A DNA stretch of 64,000 nt from sequence record OK428535.1, one strand, 5' to 3'. The position numbers and the translations under genes are program-made. The stretch comes from Escherichia phage vB_EcoM_Lh1B. The notes beneath the pieces were generated by a model. It was not told the DNA's origin. It searched no databases and saw only the letters and a list, made by a program, of their open reading frames with translations. Position 1 is the stretch's first letter; each line of letters opens with the position of its first letter. This document shows, piece after piece, positions 3,301-58,703 of the stretch.

Positions 3301-3370
3301 GGCTTTGTAGCTCAGGTAGGTAGAGCAACCTCTTCGAGGAAGGTCGCCGGTTCGAGTCCGGTCAAAGCAA
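3301..3370 (+). tRNA. tRNA-like element, non-canonical (possible pseudo-tRNA)
   Basis: Canonical D-arm GCTC-AGGTAGGTA-GAGC and T-arm GCCGG-TTCGAGT-CCGGT, 6-bp acceptor; the segment between them is too short for a standard anticodon arm plus variable loop. Confidence 0.4.
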
Positions 3371-4650: not shown

Positions 4651-4740
4651 ATTAGCTAACGCCCAGTAGCTATGTTCCTGACGATTAGCCCTCGTCTGAC
4701 CTTGTAAGACCTTGTAGATTTACATGCCAACACCAGGGAA

Positions 4741-4784
4741 GTCCTCACTCTTCGGAGTGAGGACAACTCTTTTATTTTTTTTTG
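4741..4784 (+). terminator. rho-independent terminator
   Basis: Hairpin GTCCTCACT-CTTCGG-AGTGAGGAC followed by T-rich run. Confidence 0.7.
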
Positions 4785-4800
4785 TATCCCAAATATTCAC

Positions 4801-4827
4801 AGATAGATATTACCTAAGTGAGATGAG
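4801..4827 (+). promoter_or_regulatory. promoter-like motif AGATAGATATTACCTAAGTGAGATGAG
   Basis: Member of a recurrent motif family (see findings); sits between a terminator and the ATG at 4875. Confidence 0.5.
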
Positions 4828-4874
4828 AAAGCCTCATCTGAATTTCCCCAACTCGACTATAAAAGGTAAGCATC

Positions 4875-5825
4875 ATGTACAGACCAAGTAATCCTAGTGC
4901 TATTGAAGGATTAAACCAGGATGGCTTCAGCCTCGCAGAAGCAACCCGCATTCGACCTTTCTTACCTCGCAGATTCTTCCCTTTCGGTTCGTTATACAGA
5001 ACGAATTTCGACGCTTGGGAAGCGATACGTGCTGTAAAAGATGCACTACAGTACAAGAACTTCGAATTCCGATTTGTTTTCAAATGGGGCAACGGCGAAT
5101 TGCTCCACCACTTCGGATTCCAACAGAACGAGTTCATTGAGTATACCTCACCTACGTACCACACCAGGTTCTTAAGTATCGAATTCGTTCGCCATTTCGG
5201 CGATGCACTCTTTACGGAACGGGCTACAGATGAAAACCACGGACGTAGGCTGATGTTAACGAACGGCGCACTGCGCATCAAGATGAATCGTTTACGGGAA
5301 GCGTATAACCAGCTTATCAATCCTGAACCGGTAATGTTTCCAACTGTAGCTGATTTGAACATTACACCGCTCCAGTTGCCTGTGGATGTGGATAGACCGA
5401 TTCTGGCAATCCACGCTCTCCAGGCAGGCTATGCAAACTGGTATAAAGAGCACAGTCTCCCGAACACCAGATTGAACATCGCACCGTTTGAGTTGTGCCT
5501 GTTCTTAACGTTACGCAAACAGCTCGAGCCAGAAAACTTAGACTTACGTTATCTGGCTAAAACAGATAGCGGTAATTACTACCCAACGACCTGGATGCTG
5601 GCGGCTGTACTACCCGGCGGTGAAATTATCGGTAACCCAGTCACCGATGTTCAACAGTTACCATCACCGTTAGCACCACCGAAAGATTCAATCTATCCGT
5701 ACGCTTCGTGGTACGCGAGCAGTATTGGCGTGAGATGGTTAATGTTACACGTTCCTGAAGAGGTCTATAATTTATTCCCGCATGAGCAATGGCTCCGTGC
5801 GTATGAAAATCGGTTTGGTTACTAG
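4875..5825 (+). CDS. hypothetical protein
   Basis: 316-aa ORF downstream of promoter-like motif. Confidence 0.55.
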   Translation: MYRPSNPSAIEGLNQDGFSLAEATRIRPFLPRRFFPFGSLYRTNFDAWEAIRAVKDALQYKNFEFRFVFKWGNGELLHHFGFQQNEFIEYTSPTYHTRFLSIEFVRHFGDALFTERATDENHGRRLMLTNGALRIKMNRLREAYNQLINPEPVMFPTVADLNITPLQLPVDVDRPILAIHALQAGYANWYKEHSLPNTRLNIAPFELCLFLTLRKQLEPENLDLRYLAKTDSGNYYPTTWMLAAVLPGGEIIGNPVTDVQQLPSPLAPPKDSIYPYASWYASSIGVRWLMLHVPEEVYNLFPHEQWLRAYENRFGY

Positions 5826-7646: not shown

Positions 7647-7765
7647 TCTAAGGCTCCTATGAAGCTCGTAGGACAACTCATACCATCGGGTAATGCTATC
7701 CCATTGCCTGACATTAAAATACGTTTTACGACCTTTATGTGCGCACCATACTCGAAGAAATTTTG

Positions 7766-7784
7766 CATAGATATTATCTTCGTG
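7766..7784 (+). promoter_or_regulatory. promoter-like motif CATAGATATTATCTTCGTG
   Basis: Motif family copy 26 nt upstream of the ATG at 7810. Confidence 0.45.
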
Positions 7785-7809
7785 AATTATCCTTAAGGAG
7801 CATTTCTCG

Positions 7810-8130
7810 ATGACGCGCATGTTCTTTAATTTCTCTCCAGGGACAAATGAACAGATTGTGCCTGCGGACATGTTACTGTGCGCGATACAAGAAGTCATTT
7901 ATCCCGGCACGCATGAGTTTCCACGCGAGTGGACACGCATTGCCGAAAGTTATTTTGGCACGGAAGCGTGGTTTGTTATTTCGGCGTTGGGCCGAAACCA
8001 TAGCTATCCCTTTCATTACAAAAATGGAGTTGTGCAAACGTGGTCAGAATATACCTCGAACCAGCTGCGGTTCATTCTAGCTTCTGGGGGCCTGTCGATG
8101 CTTCCCAGTACGCTACCGCTCTGCGGATGA
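7810..8130 (+). CDS. hypothetical protein
   Basis: 106-aa ORF with strong TAAGGAG site. Confidence 0.45.
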   Translation: MTRMFFNFSPGTNEQIVPADMLLCAIQEVIYPGTHEFPREWTRIAESYFGTEAWFVISALGRNHSYPFHYKNGVVQTWSEYTSNQLRFILASGGLSMLPSTLPLCG

Positions 8131-14597: not shown

Positions 14598-14781
14598 CGG
14601 GAAGTCCACAGAGATGATAACCGCAATCCGTCGCGACCTCGAAGAACGGGGTTGCGTGGATATTGAGTTACATCAGGCAGGCGAAACGGTGCATATCACG
14701 GCATTGGATGCCAAACGGAAACGTAGTATCACTGTGTGGGGTAAACCGTACGCAAGTGATTTCATGGAGACGATAAAATGA
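14584..14781 (+). CDS. hypothetical small protein
   Basis: 65-aa ORF with GGAAGG upstream. Confidence 0.3.
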   Translation: MYRNSGKSTEMITAIRRDLEERGCVDIELHQAGETVHITALDAKRKRSITVWGKPYASDFMETIK

Positions 14782-15449
14782 GTGATGAACAAGATTTGAA
14801 GTTACCAATGTCAATACCCGAATTGACTTATCTCACCGTCAACCGAGACGATCTCATTAATCAAGTAAGCAAACGCGTAGAGAAAGCCTTTGCTCAGAGT
14901 GGTTATAGTGAAGCGATTCGTAATTTCCGTACACCACTGGCACAATCAGTTACACAACCGCATGGTAAAGGCACTCAGTTATTAGTCGCTGTTCACCCGA
15001 CCTCACCTCTGGCAAAACAGCTGCTTACTGAAATGAACTGGCACTATAAGTGTGTTGAAGAAGTTCAGTCAGCTAATATCGAATGGGCTATGTCGCACAA
15101 GTCTCGCGAAGTGGCGTTAGTCGAATACCTGCGAAAACTACCTTGGGTTGGTGATTCTGCTGTTCTCCGCGATGGCGTAGGTGGGCCGGAAGTCTGGTCA
15201 CCTAATGCGGTGATTGATGTCGATTTCGTGGTTATCGATCCGGGTAGCAATACGCATGTCGTTCGTTTTACGGATGCGAATGTCGCTTCTGTGTGTAAAC
15301 AGTTGGGTATTGCCTACTATCAATGCGGGAAGAAAAAGAAGTCGTCGAGTGTTGAAATTGAGGTGGCGTTTACTGCGGTACAAACCCTAGATCCCGCTGC
15401 GGTTGAACATGCTTTAAACTTCCTCAAGAACCACCCAGACAGCAAATAA
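14778..15449 (+). CDS. hypothetical protein
   Basis: 223-aa ORF, ATGA overlap, GGAGA upstream. Confidence 0.5.
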   Translation: MSDEQDLKLPMSIPELTYLTVNRDDLINQVSKRVEKAFAQSGYSEAIRNFRTPLAQSVTQPHGKGTQLLVAVHPTSPLAKQLLTEMNWHYKCVEEVQSANIEWAMSHKSREVALVEYLRKLPWVGDSAVLRDGVGGPEVWSPNAVIDVDFVVIDPGSNTHVVRFTDANVASVCKQLGIAYYQCGKKKKSSSVEIEVAFTAVQTLDPAAVEHALNFLKNHPDSK

Positions 15450-16599: not shown

Positions 16600-16651
16600 G
16601 GCAGACTCCTTAGATTCCACATAGGAAGTCAGTCACAGTCAAAAATATCTC

Positions 16652-16673
16652 AGATTGATATTATCTATGTGAC
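16652..16673 (+). promoter_or_regulatory. promoter-like motif AGATTGATATTATCTATGTGAC
   Basis: Motif family copy ~140 nt upstream of the ATG at 16806 (distal of two). Confidence 0.45.
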
Positions 16674-16747
16674 AGTTCCTGAGAAATGTCTGGACTATGT
16701 GCCTTGTAAGTAAGCGACGGCGTACTTGCATTCCATGAAATTACAGG

Positions 16748-16764
16748 CAGATATTATCTCTGCG
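16748..16764 (+). promoter_or_regulatory. promoter-like motif CAGATATTATCTCTGCG
   Basis: Motif family copy 44 nt upstream of the ATG at 16806 (proximal of two). Confidence 0.45.
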
Positions 16765-16805
16765 AACCGAACTATGATTGCAATCACTATTAAGGAATAT
16801 TTAAA

Positions 16806-18659
16806 ATGGTAAAAATCGTTGACTCTAACAACAACGCTCAGCAGAACAACACTCAGACTCAAGACACCGCACCACTGGGCGGTCTGGGCAACGAGACTGT
16901 AAAAGTGCAAACTGCTGTGCCGGGTACTTCTACTGTCAGCCAATTCGATAACGCATTTGGCATCCGCAACATCAGCACCTATGCAATGCACTTCGTCAAC
17001 CTCCTGGACGAGCTGAAGAAAAGCAACGAATACCTCAACGCTTTCCGCTGGGGCACCATCGCCGGCGTGGGTAACGAAATGGGTTCCGCGGCGTATGTCG
17101 CAGGCCAATGGCAGGGCCACTGGCTGTATGGTATCATCTTCTTTGAACGCGGTCAGTCTCTGCGTCTGAAAGAAACTACCAACAACGGCCAGGAAGACTA
17201 CTACACCATCACTGAACTGTTCAACAAAGACGTGCTGGCAGTAGTACAGAAAAACATCATGGAAGCGCATGGTCTGACCAATGCGAACTTCATGATCATC
17301 AACTCCGTACCAGACCTGGGTAAAGTTCTGGATGCTGAGTGGGCACGTACTCTGATGGGTCAGATGATGATGGGCATCTTCGGTCGTATCGCAGGCTACC
17401 TGGGTACGCTGAACCTGCGTAAGCATGACCGTTATCAGGCTGCAGTAATGCCGCTGGAAGATGGTGCGGTTGTGGATGCTAACGGCCACGCACAACGTGC
17501 TGATTTCGCAATCACCGTTGAGCACAGCCCAAGCAACGTATCCGACGCCACTCCGACTCTGCTGGACACCAATCAGGTACAGGTGTATCCGCGTGTATCC
17601 GGTACTGGTTTCGTCAACATGCGTTTCACCGGTCAGAAGCCTGTCGTTAACGGCGTCTACGACCTGAAACAGCTGCAGGCTGAAATCGTAGTAAGTCTGG
17701 TCGATTCTCAAACTGAAGGTGCAATGGCACCGTATGAACGTCAACTGCTGCTGCTGGCTGCATTTGCAGAAATCGCGGCAATCGGTGGCTGGCGTGACCT
17801 GTTTGTGAAACGTCTGAACAAACAAGATCGCAAGTTCTCCCGTGTGGCAGAATACCTGTCCTGGGGTGCTGACGCTCGTCCTGATGTATCCAAAATCGAC
17901 GGTAGCCGTGAAGCTATCGAAGGTTGCCTGGATATGTTCGCACCGCGTGAAGCAGCACTGGTAGTTAGCCATCGTGCCGGTAACGGTCTGGGTGGTCTGT
18001 CTACTATGCTGTCTGAAATTGCGGTCGGTTACGACAACTCTCTGAAACAGCTGCTCGCTATTCTGAATTCCATGTCCCCGCGTGATCAGAACGGCGAAGT
18101 TGTTGCAGCGACCAGCTTCACTGCAGTATTTGCTTCTGCACTGAAAGCACAGCTGGGCGATGCCTTCAATGGTACCATCCATTGCAGCCACATCGTGAAA
18201 GCAGCCGTACCGACTGTTTCCGGTGTTTACACCGGTACTGCACAGAAACGTAGCTTCCAGGATATGGACCTGATTTCCGTTGTTACCAAACTGGGTGATA
18301 ACGCGAACGACGTCTATAGCTACCTGAACGCACAGTCCTACAGCCACCGTGAACTGAACGAGCGTCAACAGCGTATCTACATGCTGAAACTGGCCGCTTC
18401 TCTGTTCGCATCCAAAGCACCGCAAGCTACCGGTGAATCTCTGGATATGGCTATCAACCCGATCTTCGGTAAATGCCTGCTGGACTTCGTCCGTAACAAC
18501 TGCACCTGGTCTATGACTGGTGTAAATGCCTACAACACGATGGCGACCTCTCTGTTCTTCAACAACGGTGGGGAAGACTTCACGCTGTCTGGCAACGGCC
18601 TGTCTGCAAGCGGTTCCGATTTCGGTCTGGGCGTGTCTCTGAGCAACTTCAAACTGTAA
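16806..18659 (+). CDS. abundant early protein; candidate phage-nucleus shell (chimallin-like) or major structural protein
   Basis: 617-aa ORF with strongly E. coli-optimal codons (CTG, CGT, GGT, AAC, ATC, TTC), unlike neighbours; TAAGGAA site; two upstream promoter-like motifs; next to RNAP beta-prime-like gene. Confidence 0.7.
   Translation: MVKIVDSNNNAQQNNTQTQDTAPLGGLGNETVKVQTAVPGTSTVSQFDNAFGIRNISTYAMHFVNLLDELKKSNEYLNAFRWGTIAGVGNEMGSAAYVAGQWQGHWLYGIIFFERGQSLRLKETTNNGQEDYYTITELFNKDVLAVVQKNIMEAHGLTNANFMIINSVPDLGKVLDAEWARTLMGQMMMGIFGRIAGYLGTLNLRKHDRYQAAVMPLEDGAVVDANGHAQRADFAITVEHSPSNVSDATPTLLDTNQVQVYPRVSGTGFVNMRFTGQKPVVNGVYDLKQLQAEIVVSLVDSQTEGAMAPYERQLLLLAAFAEIAAIGGWRDLFVKRLNKQDRKFSRVAEYLSWGADARPDVSKIDGSREAIEGCLDMFAPREAALVVSHRAGNGLGGLSTMLSEIAVGYDNSLKQLLAILNSMSPRDQNGEVVAATSFTAVFASALKAQLGDAFNGTIHCSHIVKAAVPTVSGVYTGTAQKRSFQDMDLISVVTKLGDNANDVYSYLNAQSYSHRELNERQQRIYMLKLAASLFASKAPQATGESLDMAINPIFGKCLLDFVRNNCTWSMTGVNAYNTMATSLFFNNGGEDFTLSGNGLSASGSDFGLGVSLSNFKL
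17676..17733 (+). repeat. copy A of ~58-bp direct repeat (inside CDS 16806..18659)
   Basis: caggctgaaatcgtagtaagtctggtcgattctcaaactgaaggtgcaatggcaccg; about 90 percent identical to 18677..18732. Confidence 0.8.
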
Positions 18660-18676: not shown

Positions 18677-18732
18677 CAGGCTGAAATCGTAGTAAGTCTA
18701 TCGATTCCAAACTTGAAGGTGCAATGGCACCG
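18677..18732 (+). repeat. copy B of ~58-bp direct repeat (intergenic, includes ATG of next gene)
   Basis: caggctgaaatcgtagtaagtctatcgattccaaacttgaaggtgcaatggcaccg; ends in the first three codons of ORF 18724. Confidence 0.8.
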
Positions 18733-20250
18733 ATTGACAGAATGAGAAAGGTACCAAAATTCTACGGAATATCCGGCCGGTTGGTTAGTCAGGATAACTA
18801 TTTGTCCGATTTGCAAATAGAAGCTGCTGCCAAAGGTATTAAACCACCCACTATTATTAACGATGTCGCCGTTAACGGGGATGCGATCGAGGTTGCTGAA
18901 CTTATCGATCGCATGGTACAGAACAGAATCGTTGACGAAGAACTGAACTCTGCACCGATTTGTAGTTTGGATTGTCCGGCACCGATCGCGCATCGTTACA
19001 ATCTCGGTTGTAAGTGTCCGACGTGTGGCTATGTTGTAACTGAACATCGAATTGAATCCGATGTCTGGTTACGTGCACCTGATGAAATGGGTAACTTCGT
19101 CAACCCACGATTCTGGGCAATGTTCAATGCTTTCTTTAATAGCAAGTTGAAGAAGTTTGAACGTAACAAGGTCACTATCGAACGCGGTAATGACTTGATG
19201 ATGTGGATGATTGACCCGTATTACCGTATAGAAGAACCAGACGGTAAACGCGCACATGCTGTGAAACGTGTATTGGAAGAACATGGTTTCGTTCGTGGCT
19301 TGCGCAATCTGGTTGATAACCACGTTAGTATCTTTAACATCCTTACCACGCCAGAAGCCTGGAAGGAAATCTTCGCACCTAATCGGCATAACGCCGCTGA
19401 AGGTGAACGCTTACGTTTACAATGGAAGGAGCTATTCGAAACGCAACGTCACGCATTCTTTCCAAGACATTTACCGCTAATCTCCTCTAAACTTATCGTT
19501 ACTGAGGAAGGTCGTCGTGGTGTCATGGTAGACCCAGTGTTCACGGGTGCTATTGACGCGGTGAAAAATATCGCGTTGCTCTATACGCGGCGTAAAGCGA
19601 TCGAACCACGTTTTCTGATTAGTCGTGCTTTGAAGGCGAACCGTCAGCTAACGTACTTCCACATGGACTTCCGTCGTGAGTCTATGGAAGGTAAACCGGG
19701 TGACTATCGTGCGAAATTGGGTTCTACCCATATCCCGTTCGGTGGTCGTGCAACCATCTCACCTATCTCAGAACCACACGATGCCTGGAAGTTAAAAGCA
19801 CCGTGGCGTTGGATGGTTGGGTTGATGTCGACCCACATCGAGAACAAACTGCTACGACGGGGTTATTCGTCGCGGCAATGTGAGCGTATCGTTGCAAAAG
19901 CGGCAATGCAGTATGACCCGCTTGTAGACGAAATCTTTAAAGAACTGATTCGTGAATCCCCAGGCGGTCTTGGGATCATGGTCATACCGTTACGTAACCC
20001 AACGCTGGTACAGTTGTCTATTCAAACGCTGTACATCGATGAAGTTGTTACCGATGTTAACCAGTGTTCGCTGCGTATCTCTGACCGTGTGATCAAGATG
20101 GCTAACGGTTCGAAAAGAGCCCCATCGGACGGGAAACCTCTGATGCGTATTCTCCTGAAATGCTGGGAAACCCTAAAGCGTATCTACCAGAAATGGGGAC
20201 GAAAGTCTGAAACAACAGATACGATGGCCTACGCTAAACAATACTGCTAA
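18724..20250 (+). CDS. multisubunit RNA polymerase beta-prime-like subunit, N-terminal fragment
   Basis: Zinc-ribbon CSLDC...CKCPTCGYVVT (cf. beta-prime CxC...CxxCGVEVT); ELIRESP and RNPTLVQLSIQT match beta-prime EVIREHP / RAPTLHRLGIQA. Confidence 0.65.
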   Translation: MAPIDRMRKVPKFYGISGRLVSQDNYLSDLQIEAAAKGIKPPTIINDVAVNGDAIEVAELIDRMVQNRIVDEELNSAPICSLDCPAPIAHRYNLGCKCPTCGYVVTEHRIESDVWLRAPDEMGNFVNPRFWAMFNAFFNSKLKKFERNKVTIERGNDLMMWMIDPYYRIEEPDGKRAHAVKRVLEEHGFVRGLRNLVDNHVSIFNILTTPEAWKEIFAPNRHNAAEGERLRLQWKELFETQRHAFFPRHLPLISSKLIVTEEGRRGVMVDPVFTGAIDAVKNIALLYTRRKAIEPRFLISRALKANRQLTYFHMDFRRESMEGKPGDYRAKLGSTHIPFGGRATISPISEPHDAWKLKAPWRWMVGLMSTHIENKLLRRGYSSRQCERIVAKAAMQYDPLVDEIFKELIRESPGGLGIMVIPLRNPTLVQLSIQTLYIDEVVTDVNQCSLRISDRVIKMANGSKRAPSDGKPLMRILLKCWETLKRIYQKWGRKSETTDTMAYAKQYC

Positions 20251-20453
20251 CGGTTGTGATAATGGGTAATCAGCAGCGAAGCCTCGTGAGAGGAACGTTC
20301 AACGACTATCGCTGAAATGCGAGTAGGGGTCCCAGTGGACTTCGAAGTGGGAGAACACCTAAGGCGATAGCTATGGTGAAGATATAGTCTGTGCCTTATC
20401 GAGAGATAAGGAGGGTGTCTTAGCACACCTGCTGTATACGGAAACGGTATACG

Positions 20454-25115: not shown

Positions 25116-25200
25116 GAAACAAAATAAAAAATACGCCCAAGGGAAACCTTGGGCTATTAACGCTTATGCGTGGTCCTGCAACACACACTGTAAGAAGATT

Positions 25201-25221
25201 TAGATAGATATTATCTCAGTG
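25201..25221 (+). promoter_or_regulatory. promoter-like motif TAGATAGATATTATCTCAGTG
   Basis: Motif family copy 30 nt upstream of the ATG at 25251. Confidence 0.5.
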
Positions 25222-25250
25222 CAATCGACTATTCGCGGAGTTCAACTATA

Positions 25251-26885
25251 ATGAAAATTATGAAGATTAAAGACCGGATGACAATCGAGCATCATGGTCA
25301 AGAGGTCACATTTATTGGCTTACGTTATCGGAAGGATAACAACGCACCCGACTACATCACTGTTAAAGGTAAACAGATTGCACGCGACAACATTCTCTTC
25401 ATGGAATTACAACGCGTGTGGGATTATTTAACGCCAGACGAACAAGATGAACTGTTCATGGCGTATCTGATGCTGGACGAGCTGGCAAACGAATCGACGG
25501 AAACGCAGCGTAAGCACATGCCGAAGATTGTGCAGACGATTGCGAAGTTCCACAAGGCCGAAGTGTATCGTAAGCTGTATCCCATCGATAAGCTGTGGAT
25601 TCCGCAGAACATGGAAGATACGCACGATGAAATGAACAGTAATTATCCGGAAGCGATGACGTACATTCGTCCGGACTATTACGAGTTGTTGATACTGGTC
25701 CTGATGATTAAACCGTATATTCCGGTGTTCCTCACCATGGGGACGTTCCCGATAGGTAAGAACTTGCCAATCGAAACACATCGGAAAATGGTGTACAATC
25801 TGACATACTGTCTGGAGATGCTTCAAGACACAGAAGTCATGTCTTTACCTGCTATTCCGAAACTGCGTGGGTTCCTACAGACAGTGATGGAAAAGGTAGA
25901 AAAAGAACTGGCAAACAAAGGTACGAACAGCACCAGTTTGTCGGTACTAGCTACGGTGCGGGGCTATGGCACGGATATGATGGAAGATTATATCCTGGCG
26001 TATGCTATTATTAAATTGTTGGCTGTCCGTGAAGTCGGTGGTGAATTACCGGTTGAAATCATGGTTAACAACAATATCGTCACCGGCATGTATTTTCTGG
26101 TTAAACAAGAGATTGAAACAGGTTTTGCAAACAAAATCTCTAACCAGCCGGTGCTGTTAAAAGCGCATCCGGAAAGTGTGGTATTCAATGGCGAAAAGGG
26201 TAAGATAAACGCCATGGATTTGGTGCAGGCACGTTCTCCTGCACAGATGAAAGAATACGTCCGTACCGAGTACGTATTTAAAGAATACCGCTCTTTCTTG
26301 AAAACAATGCGTCTGGATAATGCCGCTCCAGCAGATGTTAAGTTATTGATTGATTCGCAACTGGCAACACATGACGGTCCTGTCTATACGTTGCACGAAT
26401 GGTTAGTCGCATTAGCACTCCATCGTAGCGTGCATTATAAGACGTATACTGAATGTGGACCAGAAGCGTTTCGCTACGGTATGGCGTTGGCACAGGCAAC
26501 TTATCTCAATTATGGAATGTATGACGTTGCGCAACTGTTAAGTTGCAATATGGTGCGTTCTGAGATGTCTGCCGGTTATGCAGCCGACCCAATTCGATCT
26601 GAACTCAAAGCAGATTTAGATAGATATTATCTTCAGGAGTATCGCAACCCGCGTAATCTCGAACCGCAATCTACACCACGGGAATCACTGACCTTGTTAC
26701 ACAAGGATCACATCAACCCGTATCTGTTCCATCTCAGGGCTACACCAGAAGCAGCTGCGCTGCTGAAGTGTGAGACGGATCAGCCAAACTATATACCTCA
26801 CTTGTCACTGCACAATAGCCTGGCGGAGTTTATGGTGTTGAATGCACGTCGCAAGTTAGAAGAAGTTGAATGGTTTAATTCTTAA
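25251..26885 (+). CDS. hypothetical protein
   Basis: 544-aa ORF; contains an intragenic promoter-like motif near its 3' end. Confidence 0.6.
   Translation: MKIMKIKDRMTIEHHGQEVTFIGLRYRKDNNAPDYITVKGKQIARDNILFMELQRVWDYLTPDEQDELFMAYLMLDELANESTETQRKHMPKIVQTIAKFHKAEVYRKLYPIDKLWIPQNMEDTHDEMNSNYPEAMTYIRPDYYELLILVLMIKPYIPVFLTMGTFPIGKNLPIETHRKMVYNLTYCLEMLQDTEVMSLPAIPKLRGFLQTVMEKVEKELANKGTNSTSLSVLATVRGYGTDMMEDYILAYAIIKLLAVREVGGELPVEIMVNNNIVTGMYFLVKQEIETGFANKISNQPVLLKAHPESVVFNGEKGKINAMDLVQARSPAQMKEYVRTEYVFKEYRSFLKTMRLDNAAPADVKLLIDSQLATHDGPVYTLHEWLVALALHRSVHYKTYTECGPEAFRYGMALAQATYLNYGMYDVAQLLSCNMVRSEMSAGYAADPIRSELKADLDRYYLQEYRNPRNLEPQSTPRESLTLLHKDHINPYLFHLRATPEAAALLKCETDQPNYIPHLSLHNSLAEFMVLNARRKLEEVEWFNS
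26617..26637 (+). promoter_or_regulatory. intragenic promoter-like motif TAGATAGATATTATCTTCAGG
   Basis: Motif family copy inside CDS 25251..26885, ~265 nt upstream of the next ATG. Confidence 0.4.
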
Positions 26886-30405: not shown

Positions 30406-32643
30406 ATGAAAACACCAGTCGAACTCATGTCAAGCGTTGCTGACCGTGAGGTGAATATCACTGGCGTATCTGGGGCACGTGCCTCAATGGTGGGTGGACA
30501 TATGAAGTCGGCGGTACCACTGGACAATCCAGATCCGACTATCCATTTTACCGGCGCTGATGTGAACTACCACGATTATTGTTTTAACGATATCGTGGAA
30601 GACAGTGGTACCGTGTGCAGTTACACAACCAAAGAAGGTGTTACTCGTGCAGCTGTTTTTGCACGCTATGGTCGTGAAGGGGATCACGATCCGCTCCAAC
30701 ATGTTATCTTCTTCACGCGCGCAGATTTAACCAACCAGCGCAAAGTGATGATTGATGTAATCGATATCAAGTATTACACCAACCACGATAACATTTTCTC
30801 GTCTAAGAAAGAGGCTACTGGGAAACTTCAGGCGTTGCTGCGCGGGCAGACTCAGCACCTGGAAAAAGATGAAATGCTTACCGTGCTGCCGGCACAGAAA
30901 GACGGTGAGTTTGTCGATGGGGTCAACCTGCACACCGTGACAATGTCGCACCCGGACATTATCGAGGACTCGTACACCATCTCCGAAACTGCAGCGAAGG
31001 CGATGCACGCTTATGGTTTGCGTGCAATTGACTTTACCCTCCGTGACGACGAGTACCTGCTTGACACGTATGGGACAACGGGTATTGATGGCGTTCGTCG
31101 ACCACAGTACCTACCCAATAAAGGACAGGCAATTCGTGATGATGGGTTGGTTATTGCCGCGCGCCGTTTCGATAAGCTATGGGCAGCCATTGACTCGCAC
31201 GTAGGTGAAACACAACATATCTCTCCGCACTTCGACCGTTGTGAGTATGTTGATGCTGACCCTGAGCATTACAAAGCGCGTCAGGCTGGCGACTTTGAAA
31301 AGATGGAACGTACTGGTTCTCGTGTCGTTGATATTCAGGTATGGCGGGACGAAACCAAATGCGATCGTGGTGTTAACAATATCGCATGTACCGAAGAGAA
31401 CAAACGCGAGTTAGATCACTACGCGAACGCTTTGAAACGTTTTTACAATGATATCGTGCGGTTCTATTTTGCGATGTCCAAGGACAAGAATATTGTCTGG
31501 TCACCGAAAGCGTTTGAGATTCTTGACAAGGCGTTCTGTTCTGAGACGTATGAAGTCTATAACGACTTCCGTGAAGAGATTGGTCGTGAATACGATGAAG
31601 CCATGCGTAAAGGTGAGTATAACCGTTCTGCTGATAAGAACGTGTTGAACAAACTGGCGCAGCCGGTTCAGCGTGGTCTCTGGGACCCAATTGGTAGCTA
31701 CACGATACGCATCGTGGTACGTTATCCAATCCCAGTTACCGTCTCATCGAAAATCACCGACCGTTCAGGTACAAAAGGTATCGTGGGCGCAGTGCGGCCT
31801 GATGAAGAAATGCCGATTAACGAGTTCGGAGAACGTGTGCATGTCATTCGTTCCATGAACGCCGTAATTCGTCGTTCGACTTATGCTGCGCTGTTCCACA
31901 TGTATTGGTCTGCTGCATCCGAGCAGTTGAAGATGCGGTTGAAACCATTACTTGCTGCCAACCAGGTTGATGAAGCCTGGGAAATCCTGATGGACTATAT
32001 CGATCGCTATAACCCACGCTGGACATTCTATCTCAATGCCAGTCACCCAGATACTGAGTCACGTCTGGAACTCTTTAAAGAGATTTACGACTTCACGATT
32101 CGTATCTGGCTTCCCCACGAATTGAATGCCACCCAGGTAGAAATCTGCCGTGCTCTAGGCGAGTATGCACCACGCAAGTCTAAGCTACTGATTACTAACT
32201 ATCAGGGTGAGAAAGAGTGGACGAAGAACCAGTTCTACGTCGGCATGGTAGAGACTCTGCGCCTGGATAAAACCGGTCGTGAGTTCTCCAGTATCTCATC
32301 GATGTACACGAACTATTTGGGTTGTATTGATGCATCCAACCAAGGACGTGGTTCATATCCGATTAACCTGAAAGGGTTGAAGTGGGGTGGTCCTTCCGAG
32401 CAGCGTCTTACCGACGGCTTTGGTCCGGGCAACTTCCCCGAAACTCATGACCGCGCTAATAACCCTGCGGTACACCGTGCGATCGTAACGGGGTTGTATA
32501 ACTCGCCAACACCAACCAATCCGGGGGTGCTGGTCGATCGTAAGAAACTGCCAATGGGAGATTCGCAGATTGACAGGATGATACGTAACATCCATCGCTG
32601 TGAAGGTTTTGAATTAGTGCGTCCAATTCGGGAGGATAAATAA
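30406..32643 (+). CDS. multisubunit RNA polymerase beta-like subunit (C-terminal portion)
   Basis: KITDRSGTKGIVGAVRPDEEMPINEFGERVHVI...SMNAV parallels beta [33 protein letters not shown]...SRMNIG. Confidence 0.7.
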   Translation: MKTPVELMSSVADREVNITGVSGARASMVGGHMKSAVPLDNPDPTIHFTGADVNYHDYCFNDIVEDSGTVCSYTTKEGVTRAAVFARYGREGDHDPLQHVIFFTRADLTNQRKVMIDVIDIKYYTNHDNIFSSKKEATGKLQALLRGQTQHLEKDEMLTVLPAQKDGEFVDGVNLHTVTMSHPDIIEDSYTISETAAKAMHAYGLRAIDFTLRDDEYLLDTYGTTGIDGVRRPQYLPNKGQAIRDDGLVIAARRFDKLWAAIDSHVGETQHISPHFDRCEYVDADPEHYKARQAGDFEKMERTGSRVVDIQVWRDETKCDRGVNNIACTEENKRELDHYANALKRFYNDIVRFYFAMSKDKNIVWSPKAFEILDKAFCSETYEVYNDFREEIGREYDEAMRKGEYNRSADKNVLNKLAQPVQRGLWDPIGSYTIRIVVRYPIPVTVSSKITDRSGTKGIVGAVRPDEEMPINEFGERVHVIRSMNAVIRRSTYAALFHMYWSAASEQLKMRLKPLLAANQVDEAWEILMDYIDRYNPRWTFYLNASHPDTESRLELFKEIYDFTIRIWLPHELNATQVEICRALGEYAPRKSKLLITNYQGEKEWTKNQFYVGMVETLRLDKTGREFSSISSMYTNYLGCIDASNQGRGSYPINLKGLKWGGPSEQRLTDGFGPGNFPETHDRANNPAVHRAIVTGLYNSPTPTNPGVLVDRKKLPMGDSQIDRMIRNIHRCEGFELVRPIREDK

Positions 32644-34748
32644 TGGCGGGTCGTTCTGTACACGTGCGTGATTTGCGTATGCTTAACTCTGATCAGGTGT
32701 GGAAACTACGCGGGCGTTATTACGTGACATTCGACGATGGTAAGTCGTTGGAAATGTCTAGTCGCCACATCAAACTCAGCTGGCCGTATTGGGGTGTGTC
32801 GCGTCTGTATCCGCAGGTGCCCACTCCATCGACCATGGCGTATCGTCCAGGTCAGGTAGCAACAGATGACCTGCATCTGGACTTTATGTCGGAAGCAGCG
32901 GTACTGGCCCGTAAAGCAGGTGTCGACCTTGCTGAAACGCGTTATATCCTGAGTCAACATGTCTACGCCGATGCGTTCAACATGACAGTGAAGAACTTGC
33001 TGTCGTATTGTACGACAATCGACTTTGACACGATGATGGAGATCTACGACCACCCGAACTTCGAACTCATCCGTCAGTGGGAAGTGCAATACCCTACTGG
33101 CTACGATGAAGATGGTCAGGATATGGTTGAAGAAGCGTACAAGCTTATCGAGAAAATCTTCAAAGACCCTGCGCTACGGTATAACCCGGTCGTGATGTCG
33201 GTACTGGACGGTACTGTGAAGATGAACCAGGTACTGCAAGCCTTCGTGCGTGGTAAAACGTCAGAAATTGACTCACGTGTATACACCAATCAGGTGTGGG
33301 AAGGCTTCTTTACCGGAATGCACTCGGTTATTTCGCGTTTGAAAGAATCCGGTGCAACATCACGTTCCCACTTGTACAACACTGACAAGATTGCCGAAGC
33401 AGAATACGCCTCACGTAAACTGCAGCTGGCAGCAAACGTACTGATGTATTTCACGTACGACGACTGCGGTACAACTCACGCACACCGCTACACGTTTAAG
33501 GATACGCAGCTGGATGAGCGTGCCTATAAAGCGATGGTGGGGATGCGTTATCGTTTAGAAGGCGATAATGGTCCGTGGTTGAGATTTGAGAAAGGTGGAT
33601 ACGCAGACCTGGTTGGTAAACCGCTGGTCTTCCGTAGTGCAATGACCTGTAAAGAGATGGCGAATCAGTCCATCTGTGCGACCTGCATGGGGGATTTGAT
33701 TTATAACCTCTCTGAAGGCACGTCACCGGGTCACCTGGCATCCACTTCCATCTCAGAAAAGGGTACACAGGGAATTCTCTCCACCAAGCACCTTGACTTC
33801 TTGCGTTATCTGCTCAACCTGGTACTCACGCCGAGAATGCGTGAGTACATGACCGAATACAAACATAACTCTCTGAAAGGGTTGTGCTTGCTACCAAAAC
33901 CACAGCGTGGTAATTGGTCAGAATACGAGTTGGTCGTTACCGACAAAGTTTATTCGGAGCTGAGCCAGATTGCGTATCATGAAGATCTCGATGCAATCGA
34001 TGAAACAGCATTGCCGGAAATCACCGACTTGACATTCCAGCGTCGTTTAGAAGATGGGCAAATCATCGCTGCAGATTCTATCGATGTGCGAATGGGTGTT
34101 TGTGGGAACTTCTCTAAACCGTTCTTGCATTACTTCTTGAAACAACGTGCGAACATTCGTATCGAGAAGAAGACGGTTCAGATTCCTTTGAAAGGATGGA
34201 ACCCGAAACACCCGGTACTGGTCTACACCAACCGTTCTGAATCGATGGCAGAATTCGTGGCAGGGTTAGAAACCAAGCTACGTTCAATCGCAGCCGATAA
34301 GAACGAAGACATTGTGGAAATCATCAACACAGCCTCGACTGTGAAGTTGAACAAGAAACAAGGTCGTGTGAAACCGGTAACGTTGGTTGAAATGGGTGGT
34401 GCTACAGAGAAACAGTGTACTTATGCGTTGATGGATACGTTTAAGTACATCCAGCGTAAGCTGAGCGGTATACCGATGACGCACATTGCGATTATGTTGG
34501 CGATATCTCGTGTAGAGTCACCAACCAATCCGTTCCCGGCAGTAGGATTTGACAGTGAGGATTCTACTAATGCCACCGGGAAACGGTTTGTCGATCACAA
34601 CACGCTCATTAGTTTGCGCTCGGCAATTCCGATGTTGTTGTTTGAAGGACAGCAGGGGAATATCGATCGCGTTGGTTTTTATACCGAGTACAAAATCCCG
34701 GCATCGTTGTACGATGACCTAGGAGCCGCTGTGGTAATTGAGTTGTAA
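32643..34748 (+). CDS. multisubunit RNA polymerase beta-prime-like subunit (C-terminal portion)
   Basis: CATCMGDL (cf. CAHCYGRDL) and trigger-loop-like TSISEKGTQGILSTKH (cf. QSIGEPGTQLTMRTFH); TAATG coupling to beta-like gene. Confidence 0.65.
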   Translation: MAGRSVHVRDLRMLNSDQVWKLRGRYYVTFDDGKSLEMSSRHIKLSWPYWGVSRLYPQVPTPSTMAYRPGQVATDDLHLDFMSEAAVLARKAGVDLAETRYILSQHVYADAFNMTVKNLLSYCTTIDFDTMMEIYDHPNFELIRQWEVQYPTGYDEDGQDMVEEAYKLIEKIFKDPALRYNPVVMSVLDGTVKMNQVLQAFVRGKTSEIDSRVYTNQVWEGFFTGMHSVISRLKESGATSRSHLYNTDKIAEAEYASRKLQLAANVLMYFTYDDCGTTHAHRYTFKDTQLDERAYKAMVGMRYRLEGDNGPWLRFEKGGYADLVGKPLVFRSAMTCKEMANQSICATCMGDLIYNLSEGTSPGHLASTSISEKGTQGILSTKHLDFLRYLLNLVLTPRMREYMTEYKHNSLKGLCLLPKPQRGNWSEYELVVTDKVYSELSQIAYHEDLDAIDETALPEITDLTFQRRLEDGQIIAADSIDVRMGVCGNFSKPFLHYFLKQRANIRIEKKTVQIPLKGWNPKHPVLVYTNRSESMAEFVAGLETKLRSIAADKNEDIVEIINTASTVKLNKKQGRVKPVTLVEMGGATEKQCTYALMDTFKYIQRKLSGIPMTHIAIMLAISRVESPTNPFPAVGFDSEDSTNATGKRFVDHNTLISLRSAIPMLLFEGQQGNIDRVGFYTEYKIPASLYDDLGAAVVIEL

Positions 34749-34751
34749 ACC

Positions 34752-34778
34752 GAGGGGCCTTGCGCCCCTCTTTTTTTG
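34752..34778 (+). terminator. rho-independent terminator
   Basis: Hairpin GAGGGGC-CTTG-CGCCCCTC then TTTTTTT. Confidence 0.7.
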
Positions 34779-34794
34779 GGCGAAGAGGGGCAGC

Positions 34795-37539
34795 ATGGTA
34801 GAAATTCAAATGACTTACACGAGTATGGGGGTACGGGTTGAAGTCCCCATCCGCCAGGCTGAAAGGGCCATACTCGCGTGGGCCGAAGAGAATATGCACG
34901 CCCCAAAGATGGGCAAGCAACATGGACGAATAACCACGGAACGCGGCGATGCGTACTACGCCCACATTCCGTCTTTAAGGACATTCATTTTCCATAAAGT
35001 GTTCGCTGAGAAGATTAAACATATCCTCCAACGGGCAGCAATTGAATACGCTTTTCAGTACAAGCTTACAGAGCACCATCCTGAACGAGGAACACCTTAC
35101 AGCTGTACATTTGATAACTACGGTTTCTCGATGGTAGAAAGCGATCCGGAGTCGCGGTTCTATTATCAGAACGAGGTTGTGGATGCAGCATCCGATCCAA
35201 ACCGACCACAGACAATCTTTGCCATTCAGACAGGGAGAGGAAAATGCTGTGCTCATGGTACGCGTGTGCGTGTACCGGGTGGTTGGAAGAACATTGAGGA
35301 TATACAGCTAGGTGATTACGTTACGGGGCGTGACGGAAAACCAGCAATGGTCTCTGGAGTGTTCCCACAGGGTGTGGTTGACCTGTATCAGGTGACGTTT
35401 TGGGATGGTAGGAGTGTTGACGTATGTGGCGAGCACTTGTGGCAAAGCTACTACGTTAATACCACCGAGAATCGTCGCTGGGGTGTACGTGATACCCTAG
35501 AGATGAAACGTTTAATTTCGATGCCTAATCCACGGGTATACATCCCATTACCAGAACCAGAGGAAATGCCAGCTAAGGATTTTGTCATTCATCCGTATTT
35601 ACTCGGTATCCTCTTGGGTGATGGCTCCCTATCGATGCCTGGTGTTTTATACACCAAAGGCGATGTGGAGATTCGTGACCGTGTTGCTGAGGTCATGCCC
35701 GCTGGACATGCAATCCATGATTCATCGTACAGCGATGGGATAACGAAGTGCATCTCTTGTCCCGGCGGTGTTAACCTTGTCCGCAGAGAGCTTGAGCGGT
35801 TAGGGTTAATTGGCTGCAGGTCTTGGGAAAAGTTCATACCTGGAGATTACTTCGAAACGTCCATCGAACAACGGTGGGAGTTGTTGCGTGGCTTGATGGA
35901 TACTGACGGTACTGTGGATAAGGATGGTGGTACGCCTTCTTTCTGTTCCACCAGTAAAGAATTGGCTTTAGGTGTTCAGGAACTTGTGCGGTCTTTAGGA
36001 GGGATTGCAACACTACGCGAGAAACGTCCGTTCTTCACACACAACGGCGAACGTCGTGAAGGTCGTTTGGCTTATAACGTCTCCATCCGCCACAAAACAC
36101 CATCGAAACTGTTCCACCTTCCAAGGAAGAAAGAACTGTGTCGTGATAACGGACAATACACCGATATACTGAAACTCCGTGTTAAGTCTATCGAACCCAT
36201 TGGTCGTGATCTTGCCACGTGTATTCGTGTCGAGAACGACGATGCGTTGTTTGTGGTGGACAAGTGGATCGTTACGCACAACACCAAGACCTGTATGAAG
36301 TCGATGGTTAAACGGGGAACCCGTACCGCATTGATTCACCGTCCGTCATACGTTCCCAAATGGCTGTTTGACGTCTGTGATGATGAAACAGGACTTCGTA
36401 TACTTCGTGACGAGGTGTTAGTTTGTACAGGCGTACAGGCGATTTACGACGCACTGGAGATGGGTAAGTCGGGAGAGCTAGATAGACGCGGTATTAAGGT
36501 AATAATCCTCCCCACGGTCTCTCTACAGCGTTTCCTGAAGGAGTACATTAACACTGCTGCGACTAACCCTGTGGACCTGGATACGTTTTATGATGTTCTG
36601 GGTGTGGGTCTGGTGGCGATGGATGAGGTGCACGAGCATTTTCACCTCGTTTACATGGCTGGTATAATGTTGAACCCGCCGGCATCGATAGAGATGTCTG
36701 CAACTCTTAAACCGGGTAGCAGTAAAGCCTTTATCGCGGAGCGGTATTTAGAACGTTTCCCAATGGAGTACCGAATCAGTATTCCAATCATTCCGGTGGT
36801 TGACGTGAAAGCGTTGTACTATCGACTGGATGATAAGAAGTTCGCGTGGTGGGCGTCGAAGATGACGCCGTATAACCACAAACTCTTCGAAGGGAAGCTG
36901 ATTAAAGAGAACTTGCATTTAGAATACGCGAACATGATCTGGGATGTGGTTGAGAAATCGTTCCTTAAACGGTATCAACCCGGCCAGAAGTGTTTGCTGC
37001 TATTTGCCACGGTTGCAATGTGTGAGTTCTTTACCGAGTATGTGAAAGATAAGTTATCGCGTGACCCTGTATTCCATCCACTGATGGTGGCGAAATATAA
37101 TGCAGGCGATTCGTATGACGACTTTATCCAAGCAGACTTCTCTATCTCCACACCGGGGAAAGCGGGGACTGCGGTCGATAAACCTGGGTTGGTGCACATG
37201 TACATTTCAACCCCGGTAGAAGACCAGCAACTGAACGAACAGATGGCCGGTCGTCCACGTAAGATTCTCCACAACGAGTGGGGTGAAATAGACCCAACGG
37301 TGTGGTTATTCCATGCGTATAACGTACCGAAGCATTGCAATTACTTGAATGCCCGCCAGAAATCACTCAAGGATGTCGTATTGTCGTTCCGTATCGCGAC
37401 ATCCCCCTACGTTGTAAGGAAATCACATGCTCACTCCGCCGCGTCCAGCAGAGCCACTGCCGCCCTACATCGGAATGACTTTAGCAAGTTTTCTCGAAAA
37501 CATTCTAAAGGCGTATCCCGGCGTAGAAGACGTCGCTAA
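34795..37539 (+). CDS. DExH-box SF2 helicase interrupted by an intein
   Basis: Extein motifs: I AIQTGRGK|T (split by intein), II VAMDEVHEH, III SAT, VI QMAGRPRK; start at ATG 34795 after GAGGGG; 3' end uncertain (overlaps ORF 37427). Confidence 0.75.
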   Translation: MVEIQMTYTSMGVRVEVPIRQAERAILAWAEENMHAPKMGKQHGRITTERGDAYYAHIPSLRTFIFHKVFAEKIKHILQRAAIEYAFQYKLTEHHPERGTPYSCTFDNYGFSMVESDPESRFYYQNEVVDAASDPNRPQTIFAIQTGRGKCCAHGTRVRVPGGWKNIEDIQLGDYVTGRDGKPAMVSGVFPQGVVDLYQVTFWDGRSVDVCGEHLWQSYYVNTTENRRWGVRDTLEMKRLISMPNPRVYIPLPEPEEMPAKDFVIHPYLLGILLGDGSLSMPGVLYTKGDVEIRDRVAEVMPAGHAIHDSSYSDGITKCISCPGGVNLVRRELERLGLIGCRSWEKFIPGDYFETSIEQRWELLRGLMDTDGTVDKDGGTPSFCSTSKELALGVQELVRSLGGIATLREKRPFFTHNGERREGRLAYNVSIRHKTPSKLFHLPRKKELCRDNGQYTDILKLRVKSIEPIGRDLATCIRVENDDALFVVDKWIVTHNTKTCMKSMVKRGTRTALIHRPSYVPKWLFDVCDDETGLRILRDEVLVCTGVQAIYDALEMGKSGELDRRGIKVIILPTVSLQRFLKEYINTAATNPVDLDTFYDVLGVGLVAMDEVHEHFHLVYMAGIMLNPPASIEMSATLKPGSSKAFIAERYLERFPMEYRISIPIIPVVDVKALYYRLDDKKFAWWASKMTPYNHKLFEGKLIKENLHLEYANMIWDVVEKSFLKRYQPGQKCLLLFATVAMCEFFTEYVKDKLSRDPVFHPLMVAKYNAGDSYDDFIQADFSISTPGKAGTAVDKPGLVHMYISTPVEDQQLNEQMAGRPRKILHNEWGEIDPTVWLFHAYNVPKHCNYLNARQKSLKDVVLSFRIATSPYVVRKSHAHSAASSRATAALHRNDFSKFSRKHSKGVSRRRRRR
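35245..36282 (+). mobile_element. intein with LAGLIDADG homing-endonuclease domain, inserted in helicase P-loop
   Basis: Starts with Cys directly after the Walker-A lysine (CCAHGTRVRV...), ends ...VVDKWIVTHN followed by Thr; two LAGLIDADG motifs (YLLGILLGDGS, ELLRGLMDTDGTV); 346 aa. Confidence 0.75.
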
Positions 37540-40454: not shown

Positions 40455-40498
40455 ACCAGGAAGACGTTCCGTCCGAGCAAATCATTACAACGCTCAAG

Positions 40499-40870
40499 AT
40501 GGATACCACCTCTCTCTTCAAGCAGCGTAGCACACGTCCTATTACGTATCAGGAAGCCCATAACGAGCTTCTGGAAGCGTATGACCGTACACTGGCTCTT
40601 AATACCGGCGACCATCAGGTAGGGTTGTCAGATTTTGAAAACCCGGTATACGGTAGTCTTTACGATATCTGGTACGCCACTTACTTACGTGAAGAGGTCG
40701 GTGAAAACTACCGGATGTCGATAGACGAGTTCCTCGACCGTCCCCNCTGGCAGATACTNCTNATGCNCGACAATGCCCGTCGCCCCAATGNGTTTTTCCC
40801 CAAANCCGGGGAATACGCGGCGGGTAAACGCGGGCAAAAGGAGCCGGATAAATATATGACGGGATATTAA
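40499..40870 (+). CDS. hypothetical protein
   Basis: 123-aa ORF, weak ribosome-binding site, contains N calls. Confidence 0.3.
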   Translation: MDTTSLFKQRSTRPITYQEAHNELLEAYDRTLALNTGDHQVGLSDFENPVYGSLYDIWYATYLREEVGENYRMSIDEFLDRPXWQIXXMXDNARRPNXFFPKXGEYAAGKRGQKEPDKYMTGY

Positions 40871-40879
40871 AANAAATTN

Positions 40880-40908
40880 GGGGNTTCGGCCCCGTTTTCT
40901 TTTTTTTA
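40880..40908 (+). terminator. rho-independent terminator
   Basis: Hairpin GGGGnTTCGGCCCC then T-run (contains N). Confidence 0.55.
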
Positions 40909-40950
40909 TTCGCCTTGGTATGAATGCCCTTTTCACTATGGAACAGAGCC

Positions 40951-41808
40951 ATGATTGATATTTATACCGACTATGCGGCTGTATTGACAGTCAACCGTCA
41001 CGAAGGTCGTGCAGCACCGATGCTAGATTTAGTGACGCTCGGTATGGATTACGGTTACGATGTGGCGTTATCCGATGTTTATAGCAACCCGTTGTCTGAC
41101 CCTGCGGACGAAACTGTTCGTCTGGAATCCATTATCGTGAAGGTAGCGGTTGGGTTAGGCAACCGCCTCGGTATCGGACTTAATCCACAAATCGTCTTCC
41201 AGAAACCGAAAGAAACCGTACGTATCCTTCACGGTGTGTTGGAAGCCTTCGAAGAGTTCGAAGACAGTGATGCCCTTTACGGGATTGTCTCCTCTGGTGA
41301 GACACCAGAGTATATCCTGGAGAACATGTGTCGTTATGTTTACGGTGACGAAAACCTGCACTTCGAAGACCTGATTACTGTTGTCAGCCCACGCGTGCTT
41401 ACCGTGATGGAAAACTTCTTAGCGGCAGAGTCGTTGGAAAGCCAGAAAAGAAATGGCGATGATGAGCGCCAAGAGCGTATCGTCACTTACTTGCGGTTGT
41501 TCCCTGAGAACCCGTCAGCGTTTGTCTTTATGAATCTGCCTGCTGAACCAGACTTAACAGTGGTGCAACAATCGTTAGAATTTCGCGTAGAAGACATTAG
41601 CGAAATTGATTTGCTGACGATGTATGCGGTAGGTTTATCGATTATTCCTCATGCGGAGTTTGACGGGGCTTACGGTGACTTAGAAAAGAACCTTGCCTTG
41701 TTGAACGTCGACAACGTCCCGCCTGGAGAAATCTTGCGGAAAGGATTGGAAGCGTTGAAAGTCATATACGCTAGTGGGGTCGCGGAGGTAGATGATGAAC
41801 AAGATTGA
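40951..41808 (+). CDS. hypothetical acidic protein
   Basis: ORF; start ambiguous between 40924 and 40951. Confidence 0.45.
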   Translation: MIDIYTDYAAVLTVNRHEGRAAPMLDLVTLGMDYGYDVALSDVYSNPLSDPADETVRLESIIVKVAVGLGNRLGIGLNPQIVFQKPKETVRILHGVLEAFEEFEDSDALYGIVSSGETPEYILENMCRYVYGDENLHFEDLITVVSPRVLTVMENFLAAESLESQKRNGDDERQERIVTYLRLFPENPSAFVFMNLPAEPDLTVVQQSLEFRVEDISEIDLLTMYAVGLSIIPHAEFDGAYGDLEKNLALLNVDNVPPGEILRKGLEALKVIYASGVAEVDDEQD

Positions 41809-43090: not shown

Positions 43091-43103
43091 GGATTGTTTC
43101 CTC

Positions 43104-43604: not shown

Positions 43605-43607
43605 ATA

Positions 43608-43652
43608 AAAGTACCTCTCTACCCTAGGGTAGAGAGGCCTTTCTTTTTTTGT
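43608..43652. terminator. bidirectional terminator between convergent genes
   Basis: Hairpin CCTCTCTACCC-TA-GGGTAGAGAGG with A-run before and T-run after. Confidence 0.7.
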
Positions 43653-43653
43653 T

Positions 43654-45438: not shown

Positions 45439-45508
45439 GGTCTACTCTCAAATATGGTGTCTGCTATACTGATTTGTGGGTAACGTATTTTCTAAAAGGA
45501 ACGTCTAA

Positions 45509-58652: not shown

Positions 58653-58663
58653 TTAGACTGGCG

Positions 58664-58703
58664 AATCCCCCACTTCGGTGGGGGATTTACCTTTTCTTTT
58701 TTT
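58664..58703 (+). terminator. rho-independent terminator
   Basis: Hairpin AATCCCCCAC-TTCG-GTGGGGGATT then T-run. Confidence 0.7.

Follow-up and report, generated by a model that had tools for sequence, protein, structure and literature searches.

A family of predicted early promoters in SPN3US-like jumbo phages, with a predicted 5′-terminal leader hairpin in a strict subclass

A motif found upstream of two genes in Escherichia phage vB_EcoM_Lh1B (OK428535.1) is probably an early promoter that is read by the virion RNA polymerase of an SPN3US-like jumbo phage. The motif belongs to a family of sites with a biased strand and position, its sequence is conserved between phage genera, and the RNA hairpin that follows it covaries. 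The identity of the polymerase, the start point and the label "early" rest on analogy. The promoter class is already known from phiKZ-related phages, and the extended consensus of the SPN3US clade and its covarying 5′-terminal leader hairpin are details specific to this clade.

The stretch of DNA analysed, referred to as the window, is 64,000 nucleotides long. It shared 94–99.7% identity with jumbo phages of the SPN3US group (Seoulvirus), and its order matched that of the initial 64 kb of Escherichia phage vB_EcoM_EC001 throughout; these comparisons identify it as the leftmost 64 kb of an SPN3US-like jumbo phage (Seoulvirus, phiKZ-related). SPN3US encodes both a virion RNA polymerase (gp42, 218, 240, 241 and 244) and a non-virion RNA polymerase (PMC5105663), and RNA polymerase beta-type genes are present in its annotation. 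The homologue of the virion polymerase subunit gp42 is ORF 41792–43090 in the window.

The two motif loci and their surroundings

Exactly two copies of AGATAKATATTACCTARGTGAGAT were present in the window, at 4801–4824 and 58726–58749, both on the plus strand. By allowing up to three mismatches no further copy was detected in the window, nor any in 100 dinucleotide shuffles. The two repeated loci of the original prediction were thereby recovered, with none expected by chance. The copies had been described as identical in 25 of 27 nucleotides; the identity is indeed strong, and the count is 22 of 24 bases, or 23 of 25 if the C in front of the motif is included. Also borne out at both loci were the strong hairpin and T-run upstream of the motif and the short inverted repeat after it; each of the two upstream hairpins has a UUCG loop. 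The gap between the T-run and the motif is approximately 17 nt in the first copy and 22 nt in the second. The features of the first locus are:

4736–4769 (core 4741–4764), plus strand: predicted intrinsic terminator 1, with a 10-bp stem and UUCG loop, ending the SPN3US gp4 homologue (−21 kcal/mol, z −5.1)
4767–4783, plus strand: T-run of terminator 1, read from the sequence
4789–4800, plus strand: AT-rich element upstream of core 1, from about −31 to −20; matrix site 4789–4828, score 44.7 (highest score in shuffles 9.3)
4801–4819, plus strand: core of promoter 1, AGATAGATATTACCTAAGT (−19 to −1), from motif search, matrix and orthologue alignment
4820, plus strand: predicted transcription start 1, the G six bases past ATATTAC, placed by the G at 23 of 23 sites and by the AR9/phiKZ spacing
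4821–4839, plus strand: leader hairpin 1, AGAUGAG/CUCAUCU, 7 bp (−8.7 kcal/mol, z about −3.2)
4852–4860, plus strand: CTCGACTAT box, 21 nt before the ATG
4875–5825, plus strand: downstream gene, SPN3US gp5 homologue, phrog_9548, of unknown function

Those of the second locus are:

58663–58688, plus strand: predicted intrinsic terminator 2, with an 11-bp stem and UUCG loop, downstream of the internal head protein gene (−19.8 kcal/mol, z −4.0)
58691–58703, plus strand: T-run of terminator 2, read from the sequence
58714–58725, plus strand: AT-rich upstream element of promoter 2, with one N at 58718; matrix site 58714–58753, score 44.9
58726–58744, plus strand: core of promoter 2, AGATATATATTACCTAGGT, from motif search and matrix; invariant in 6 phages of 3 genera
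58745, plus strand: predicted transcription start G of promoter 2
58745–58764, plus strand: leader hairpin 2, 8 bp (−6.7 kcal/mol, z about −3.2); covariance-model match of 63.3 bits
58770–58776, plus strand: CGACTAT box, some 25 nt ahead of the probable start codon
58789–59550, plus strand: downstream gene, SPN3US gp55 homologue, phrog_18643, of unknown function

Locus 1 is located between the homologues of SPN3US gp4 and gp5, and locus 2 between the internal head protein gene (57393–58652, match to PF12699) and the gp55 homologue, which probably begins at its second ATG (58795), where the SPN3US annotation also places the start. Neither gp5 nor gp55 is mentioned in the SPN3US proteomics paper. 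When the two cassettes were aligned, the motif block was alike in both and the remaining sequence, terminators included, was not.

Some other properties of the window were recorded. Two tRNA genes (Rfam tRNA) are situated upstream of locus 1, at 2141–2213 (63.6 bits) and 3301–3370 (40.9 bits). A group I intron (Rfam RF00028, 69 bits) at 20090–20411 lies within the gene of a non-virion RNA polymerase subunit, the homologue of SPN3US gp23; SPN3US lacks the intron and has no counterpart to window 20103–20452. Further insertions or replacements relative to SPN3US, none of which adjoins a promoter cassette, were found at 989–1556, at 14780–15435, which contains ORF 14778–15449, and at 35232–36414. 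The last lies within the helicase-like ORF 34738–37539 and could be an intein or a homing-endonuclease insertion. The window holds 133 N characters, which are clustered, mainly in 38524–45654 and also in 58575–58718 and 63672–63708; a single one, at 58718, falls within the AT-rich upstream element of the second cassette.

The promoter family and the polymerase that may read it

A 40-column matrix was built iteratively from the first matches on the whole SPN3US genome. It detected 23 plus-strand sites with scores of 31–48 and a clear gap to the remaining matches, and the only others at or above 12 were three reverse-strand echoes of the partly palindromic core (scores 13–26). Twenty of the 23 sites are fully intergenic, in a genome of which 6.4% is intergenic overall, and they are positioned 18–253 nt upstream of a plus-strand gene. 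Their core, ATAKATATTAY, sits 6 nt before an invariant G, such that all 23 sites have a G six bases past ATATTAY. The same matrix found eight sites in the window, all on the plus strand, with scores of 33.6–44.9 (shuffled maximum 9.3). A search for additional copies had been proposed along with the original prediction of a two-copy cassette, and its outcome makes that prediction an undercount: the flagged pair are the two strictest of the 8 sites in the window and the 23 in SPN3US. The six other family members in the window are:

7753–7792, plus strand: ATATTATCT subclass, score 39.3, 18 nt before ORF 7810–8130
16640–16679, plus strand: score 44.6, before ORF 16806–18659 and the non-virion RNA polymerase gene 18724–20250
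16733–16772, plus strand: score 33.6, second site of the operon formed by ORF 16806–18659 and 18724–20250
25190–25229, plus strand: score 35.5, before ORF 25251–26885
26606–26645, plus strand: score 34.1, inside ORF 25251–26885, with 253 nt from the end of the site to the next start codon
30349–30388, plus strand: score 34.8, 18 nt before the non-virion beta′ genes 30406–32643 and 32643–34748

The looser ATATTATCT subclass could represent a different temporal class. Weaker matches on the reverse strand, at 16643–16682 (minus) in the window and 191593–191632 (minus) in SPN3US, are located 19–44 nt before divergent minus-strand genes; the core is partly palindromic (AGATA-N5-TAYCT) and bidirectional use is possible.

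The genes behind the sites are of a particular kind. All four non-virion RNA polymerase genes (gp23, gp34/35 and gp77) are found directly behind sites, which in the window are those at 16640/16733 and 30349. None of the virion RNA polymerase genes of SPN3US (gp42, 218, 240, 241 and 244) has a site directly upstream. Among the 21 first-downstream genes, none carries a virion, head or tail annotation, though about a fifth of the SPN3US genes do.

In alignments of orthologues, the core and the G were invariant at both flagged loci across Seoulvirus, Erskinevirus and Machinavirus, while the flanks had diverged. The site before the non-virion beta′ gene (30349) was conserved in four genera, and over the three aligned loci together the invariance of the core spans Seoulvirus, Erskinevirus, Machinavirus and Wellingtonvirus. 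Conservation was unbroken from −34 to +4, CTAGGTGAGA included. Relative to distant Erwinia phages, the cassette was the only DNA in these regions detectable by BLAST, and orthologous cassettes keep orthologous positions across the genera. In Erwinia phage Asesino, an annotated CDS, gp21 (1155–1379 of the compared segment), spans the orthologous terminator/promoter cassette and is probably a spurious gene call.

The closest likeness to a mapped promoter is found in phage AR9, in which the early consensus AAATATATATTAT-(6N)-G, with the G as start, was mapped by dRNA-seq and primer extension and is chloramphenicol-insensitive (PMC5312081). Sites in the SPN3US clade read ATATATTAC/T-(6N)-G with a spacing identical to the AR9 consensus, where the position relative to the true start is a predicted one. 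In the first 50 kb of phiKZ, TATATTAC was the most enriched octamer upstream of genes; its seven sites are all intergenic, all on the plus strand and all followed by N6-G. The core of promoter 2 contains this phiKZ-type octamer at exactly the phiKZ spacing. One of the phiKZ TATATTAC-N6-G sites precedes PHIKZ054, for which a primary start with the early motif has been reported (PMC8244752). According to a review, AT-rich motifs of about 10 nt centred near −10 characterise the early promoters in every jumbo phage that encodes RNA polymerases, and they can be found bioinformatically (PMC7598289). Among the papers covered by our literature search, none described SPN3US promoters or reported transcripts, start sites or expression timing for phages of the SPN3US type.

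The early promoters of phiKZ, AR9 and 201phi2-1 thus resemble the sites of the SPN3US clade in several respects: an AT-rich block near −10 with a T/A-rich block further upstream; a core of TATATTAC or ATATTAT followed by six bases and a start G; tens of copies per genome, before small unknown genes and non-virion polymerase genes; and two polymerases that are both encoded in the genome. They differ in that the SPN3US clade has the flanks AGATA before the core and YTAGGTGAGA after it, and the starts in this clade are predicted whereas those of AR9 were mapped experimentally. Because the TATATTAC-N6-G geometry fits AR9 and phiKZ, and because the non-virion polymerase genes sit behind sites, we favour early promoters of the virion polymerase.

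It is very unlikely that the motif is instead a host sigma-70 promoter, an AT-rich extended −10 with an UP-like element, from which the bacterial RNA polymerase would transcribe phage early genes. The core does hold TATATT, which matches TATAAT in five of six positions and follows an A/T-rich block, and all the phages with the motif have hosts among the Enterobacterales. This candidate was nevertheless rejected, as a promoter scan gave no match at either cassette. There is no −35 hexamer at 16–18 nt, and the unbroken conservation from −34 to +4, including CTAGGTGAGA, is unlike that of sigma-70 promoters. Furthermore, the TATATTAC-N6-G core is shared with phiKZ of Pseudomonas, and a close variant with AR9 of Bacillus, where early promoters are attributed to the virion RNA polymerase. 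Given the lack of sigma-70 features, a plain reporter fusion of the motif should show no activity in cells free of the phage.

The conserved block might also be an operator for a phage DNA-binding regulator or a middle promoter for the non-virion polymerase, which we consider unlikely. The inverted arms of the core (AGATA-N5-TAYCT) would suit a dimeric DNA-binding protein as well, reverse-strand echoes occur in divergent intergenic regions, and the two sequence subclasses, TATATATTACYT and ATAGATATTATCT, could mean two regulatory classes. The flanks are however strongly asymmetric, with TTTC upstream and GTGAGA downstream, and both the orientation to the downstream gene and the distance to the G are fixed. 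The middle and late motifs reported for phiKZ are different (a TACT box near −22; TATG at the start), and the non-virion polymerase genes, which sit behind the motif, need to be transcribed before that enzyme exists.

With an early promoter of the virion polymerase, the events may be depicted as follows: A multisubunit RNA polymerase, carried in the virion and delivered along with the DNA, would read the motif, recognising an AT-rich block at about −34 to −20 (consensus over the 46 strict copies described below, ATTAAAAATnATTTC) and the core AGATAKATATTAYCT at −19 to −5. The first transcribed base would be the invariant G six bases past ATATTAY, at 4820 and 58745. At the two flagged loci the intrinsic terminator with the UUCG loop would end the upstream unit, which at locus 2 is that of a late internal-head-protein gene, and the early unit would thereby begin on a clean template. 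In the strict subclass, the first 18–21 nt of the RNA would form a hairpin from +1, probably shielding the 5′-end from 5′-end-dependent decay, and thereafter the leader of about 51 nt with its Shine-Dalgarno site would lead to the start codon.

SPN3US serves as a genetic model of giant phages, and relatives are used against Salmonella and Erwinia. For phages of this type the sites provide a testable promoter map, with 8 sites in the window and 23 genome-wide, their predicted starts and the genes predicted to be expressed first. In the window the predicted start G falls at 4820, 7784, 16671, 16764, 25221, 26637, 30380 and 58745. The TATATTAC-N6-G core is common to the Pseudomonas and enterobacterial members, with the close variant ATATTAT-N6-G in Bacillus phage AR9, which points to a conserved mode of recognition by the polymerase. 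The current picture of jumbo-phage transcription is left unchanged by this promoter family; the covarying 5′-terminal hairpin is a small new detail that could serve expression design and studies of the fate of early mRNA.

The leader hairpin of the strict subclass

Both flagged copies belong to a strict subclass, defined by the pattern AGATATATATTACYTnnGTGAG, of which SPN3US has 7 copies. In IMG/VR the pattern gave 49 exact matches on approximately 15 jumbo-phage contigs, on one strand per contig, and 46 of these copies were unique. A covariance model of the subclass matched only the two flagged sites in the window. The proteins encoded downstream of the seven SPN3US copies are unrelated (best BLASTP E-value 0.01), and the similarity of the cassettes is therefore not a by-product of gene duplication, which was ruled out as the way they spread.

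The pairing of the hairpin was kept in the orthologues of locus 1, where the stem changes only through G-U pairs, and in those of locus 2 pair 7 runs from G-U to C-G to A-U. In an alignment-free test, and thus without the bias of fitting to a structure, a stem of at least 7 bp starting from +1 to +3 was found in 57% of the 46 unique copies, compared to 3% of shuffles and 4% of windows placed 35 nt further on. The mean energy was −5.8 against −1.6 kcal/mol, and 19 different stem sequences were represented. The first paired base was +1, the predicted start, in 36 of 44 copies. The sense strand folded better than the antisense strand (p = 9e-6) and G-U made up 11% of the pairs, both of which point to a structure of the RNA rather than of the DNA.

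A model-guided alignment of 48 distinct copies gave 92.8% paired cells, relative to 80.6% in shuffles and 36–67% with a slid partner, and 40 cells with compensatory changes on both sides where 17 were expected; these two figures lean towards pairing, since the alignment was fitted to the structure and its seed set was picked for folding. None of 500 shuffles of the 48 copies reached either the share of paired cells or the number of compensatory changes. Plain MAFFT and RNAalifold on 37 leaders produced an ungapped alignment and no consensus structure, because the loops differ in length. Rfam 15 at the gathering score gave no match at the cassettes, and in the window only the two tRNAs and the group I intron.

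The leaders of the strict subclass vary little in length: their median is 51 nt, and the interquartile range spans 49.5–54.5. A hairpin flush with the 5′-end protects E. coli mRNAs from 5′-end-dependent decay. The E. coli ompA leader and the T7 phi10 leader (GGGAGA... hairpin) resemble the predicted transcripts of the strict subclass by having a hairpin that begins no more than 2 nt from the 5′-end, then an unstructured leader with a ribosome-binding site, right after a phage-polymerase promoter; they differ in that the sequences are unrelated and the polymerase here is multisubunit and not T7-like. By analogy, the 5′ hairpin most likely shields the RNA from 5′-end-dependent decay, a role that requires the true start to fall within about 2 nt of the predicted one. 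In the papers examined on phiKZ, AR9 and 201phi2-1 there is no mention of a 5′-terminal RNA hairpin followed by a leader of about 51 nt.

Between the hairpin and the start codon many of these genes carry a second short element. At locus 1, TCGACTAT was invariant in 6 orthologues from two genera, and the box was lost in one orthologue of locus 2 (Asesino). The (T)AATCGACYAT box occurs in the window at 4854, 25226, 58770 and 59581, and in SPN3US it is located 20–28 nt before the start codon of 12 genes, just upstream of the Shine-Dalgarno site. It was found before most genes of the strict subclass and also before genes without a promoter site.

It is conceivable, if rather doubtful, that the strict subclass forms an "immediate-early" regulon in which the 5′ hairpin or the GACTAT box is recognised by a phage or host factor. 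If so, the consequence could be selective stabilisation, control of translation, or a step that lets the first mRNAs leave the early-infection compartment, the site at which the injected genome is transcribed.

Two leaders in SPN3US, at about 165675–165782 and about 167510–167621, contain a promoter site, the 5′ hairpin, a terminator-like hairpin with T-run, a GACTAT-type box and the ATG. These could be short leader RNAs or attenuators and resemble the 5′ UTR-derived sRNAs described in 201phi2-1; under an immediate-early regulon they could be regulated leaders or short RNAs.

Terminators and the composition of the cassette

At both upstream hairpins the stem-loop is GC-rich and a T-run comes immediately after it on the transcribed strand, as expected for intrinsic terminators, and we classify them as predicted terminators from these elements. 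The terminator stems covary between genera at both loci, that of terminator 1 in Asesino and phiEaH2. By pairwise alignment, terminators 1 and 2 have a common design and a different sequence. A terminator-like hairpin with T-run was present within 75 nt upstream in only 23 of the 46 strict copies. Conversely, six terminators with UUCG loop and T-run were found in the window (4741, 5837, 15456 on the minus strand, 49059, 58663 and 62076), of which only two adjoin a promoter site.

These two counts make the cassette a juxtaposition of two independent families, and the C(UUCG)G terminators are a separate family of their own. The modular cassette of the original prediction holds for its anatomy, in that terminator, promoter-like motif and leader hairpin follow each other at both loci; it fails in its restriction to two copies and in counting the terminator as part of a repeated module. 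Such an arrangement would be reasonable at points where a late unit gives way to an early one. The conserved-motif terminators of phiKZ and 201phi2-1 are similar to those of the window in having a GC-rich stem, a conserved loop and a T-rich tail and in forming a genome-wide family, and the window terminators differ from the phiKZ stem motif by their shared C(UUCG)G tetraloop.

Composite cassettes of terminator and early promoter are known from T4-type phages as PeSLs, which mark recombination points (PMC4122927). We find it extremely unlikely that the cassettes described here are PeSL-like mobile modules, serving mainly as recombination points at which genes are shuffled. The likeness is considerable: as in PeSLs (PMC4122927), a short terminator stem-loop is followed by an early promoter and the combination is repeated before unrelated genes, and in some distant relatives the cassette is the only DNA similarity. 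PeSL promoters are however of the sigma-70 type, unlike those of loci 1 and 2, and PeSLs mark the boundaries of indels between close relatives. In the comparison of the window with SPN3US, which is a single genome pair, none of the four indels (989–1556, 14780–15435, 20103–20452 and 35232–36414) adjoins a cassette, and recombination scars of the PeSL type were rejected on this ground. The terminators are moreover not homologous between the copies, only half of the strict copies have one, and orthologous cassettes are at orthologous positions across genera.

A block of approximately 40 nt before terminator 1 (4700–4740, ...TGTAGATTTACATGCCAACACCAGGGAAG) is conserved into Erskinevirus phages, where it has other neighbouring genes and a tRNA array upstream. 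This block may act as an element of the 3′ UTR or as a small RNA.
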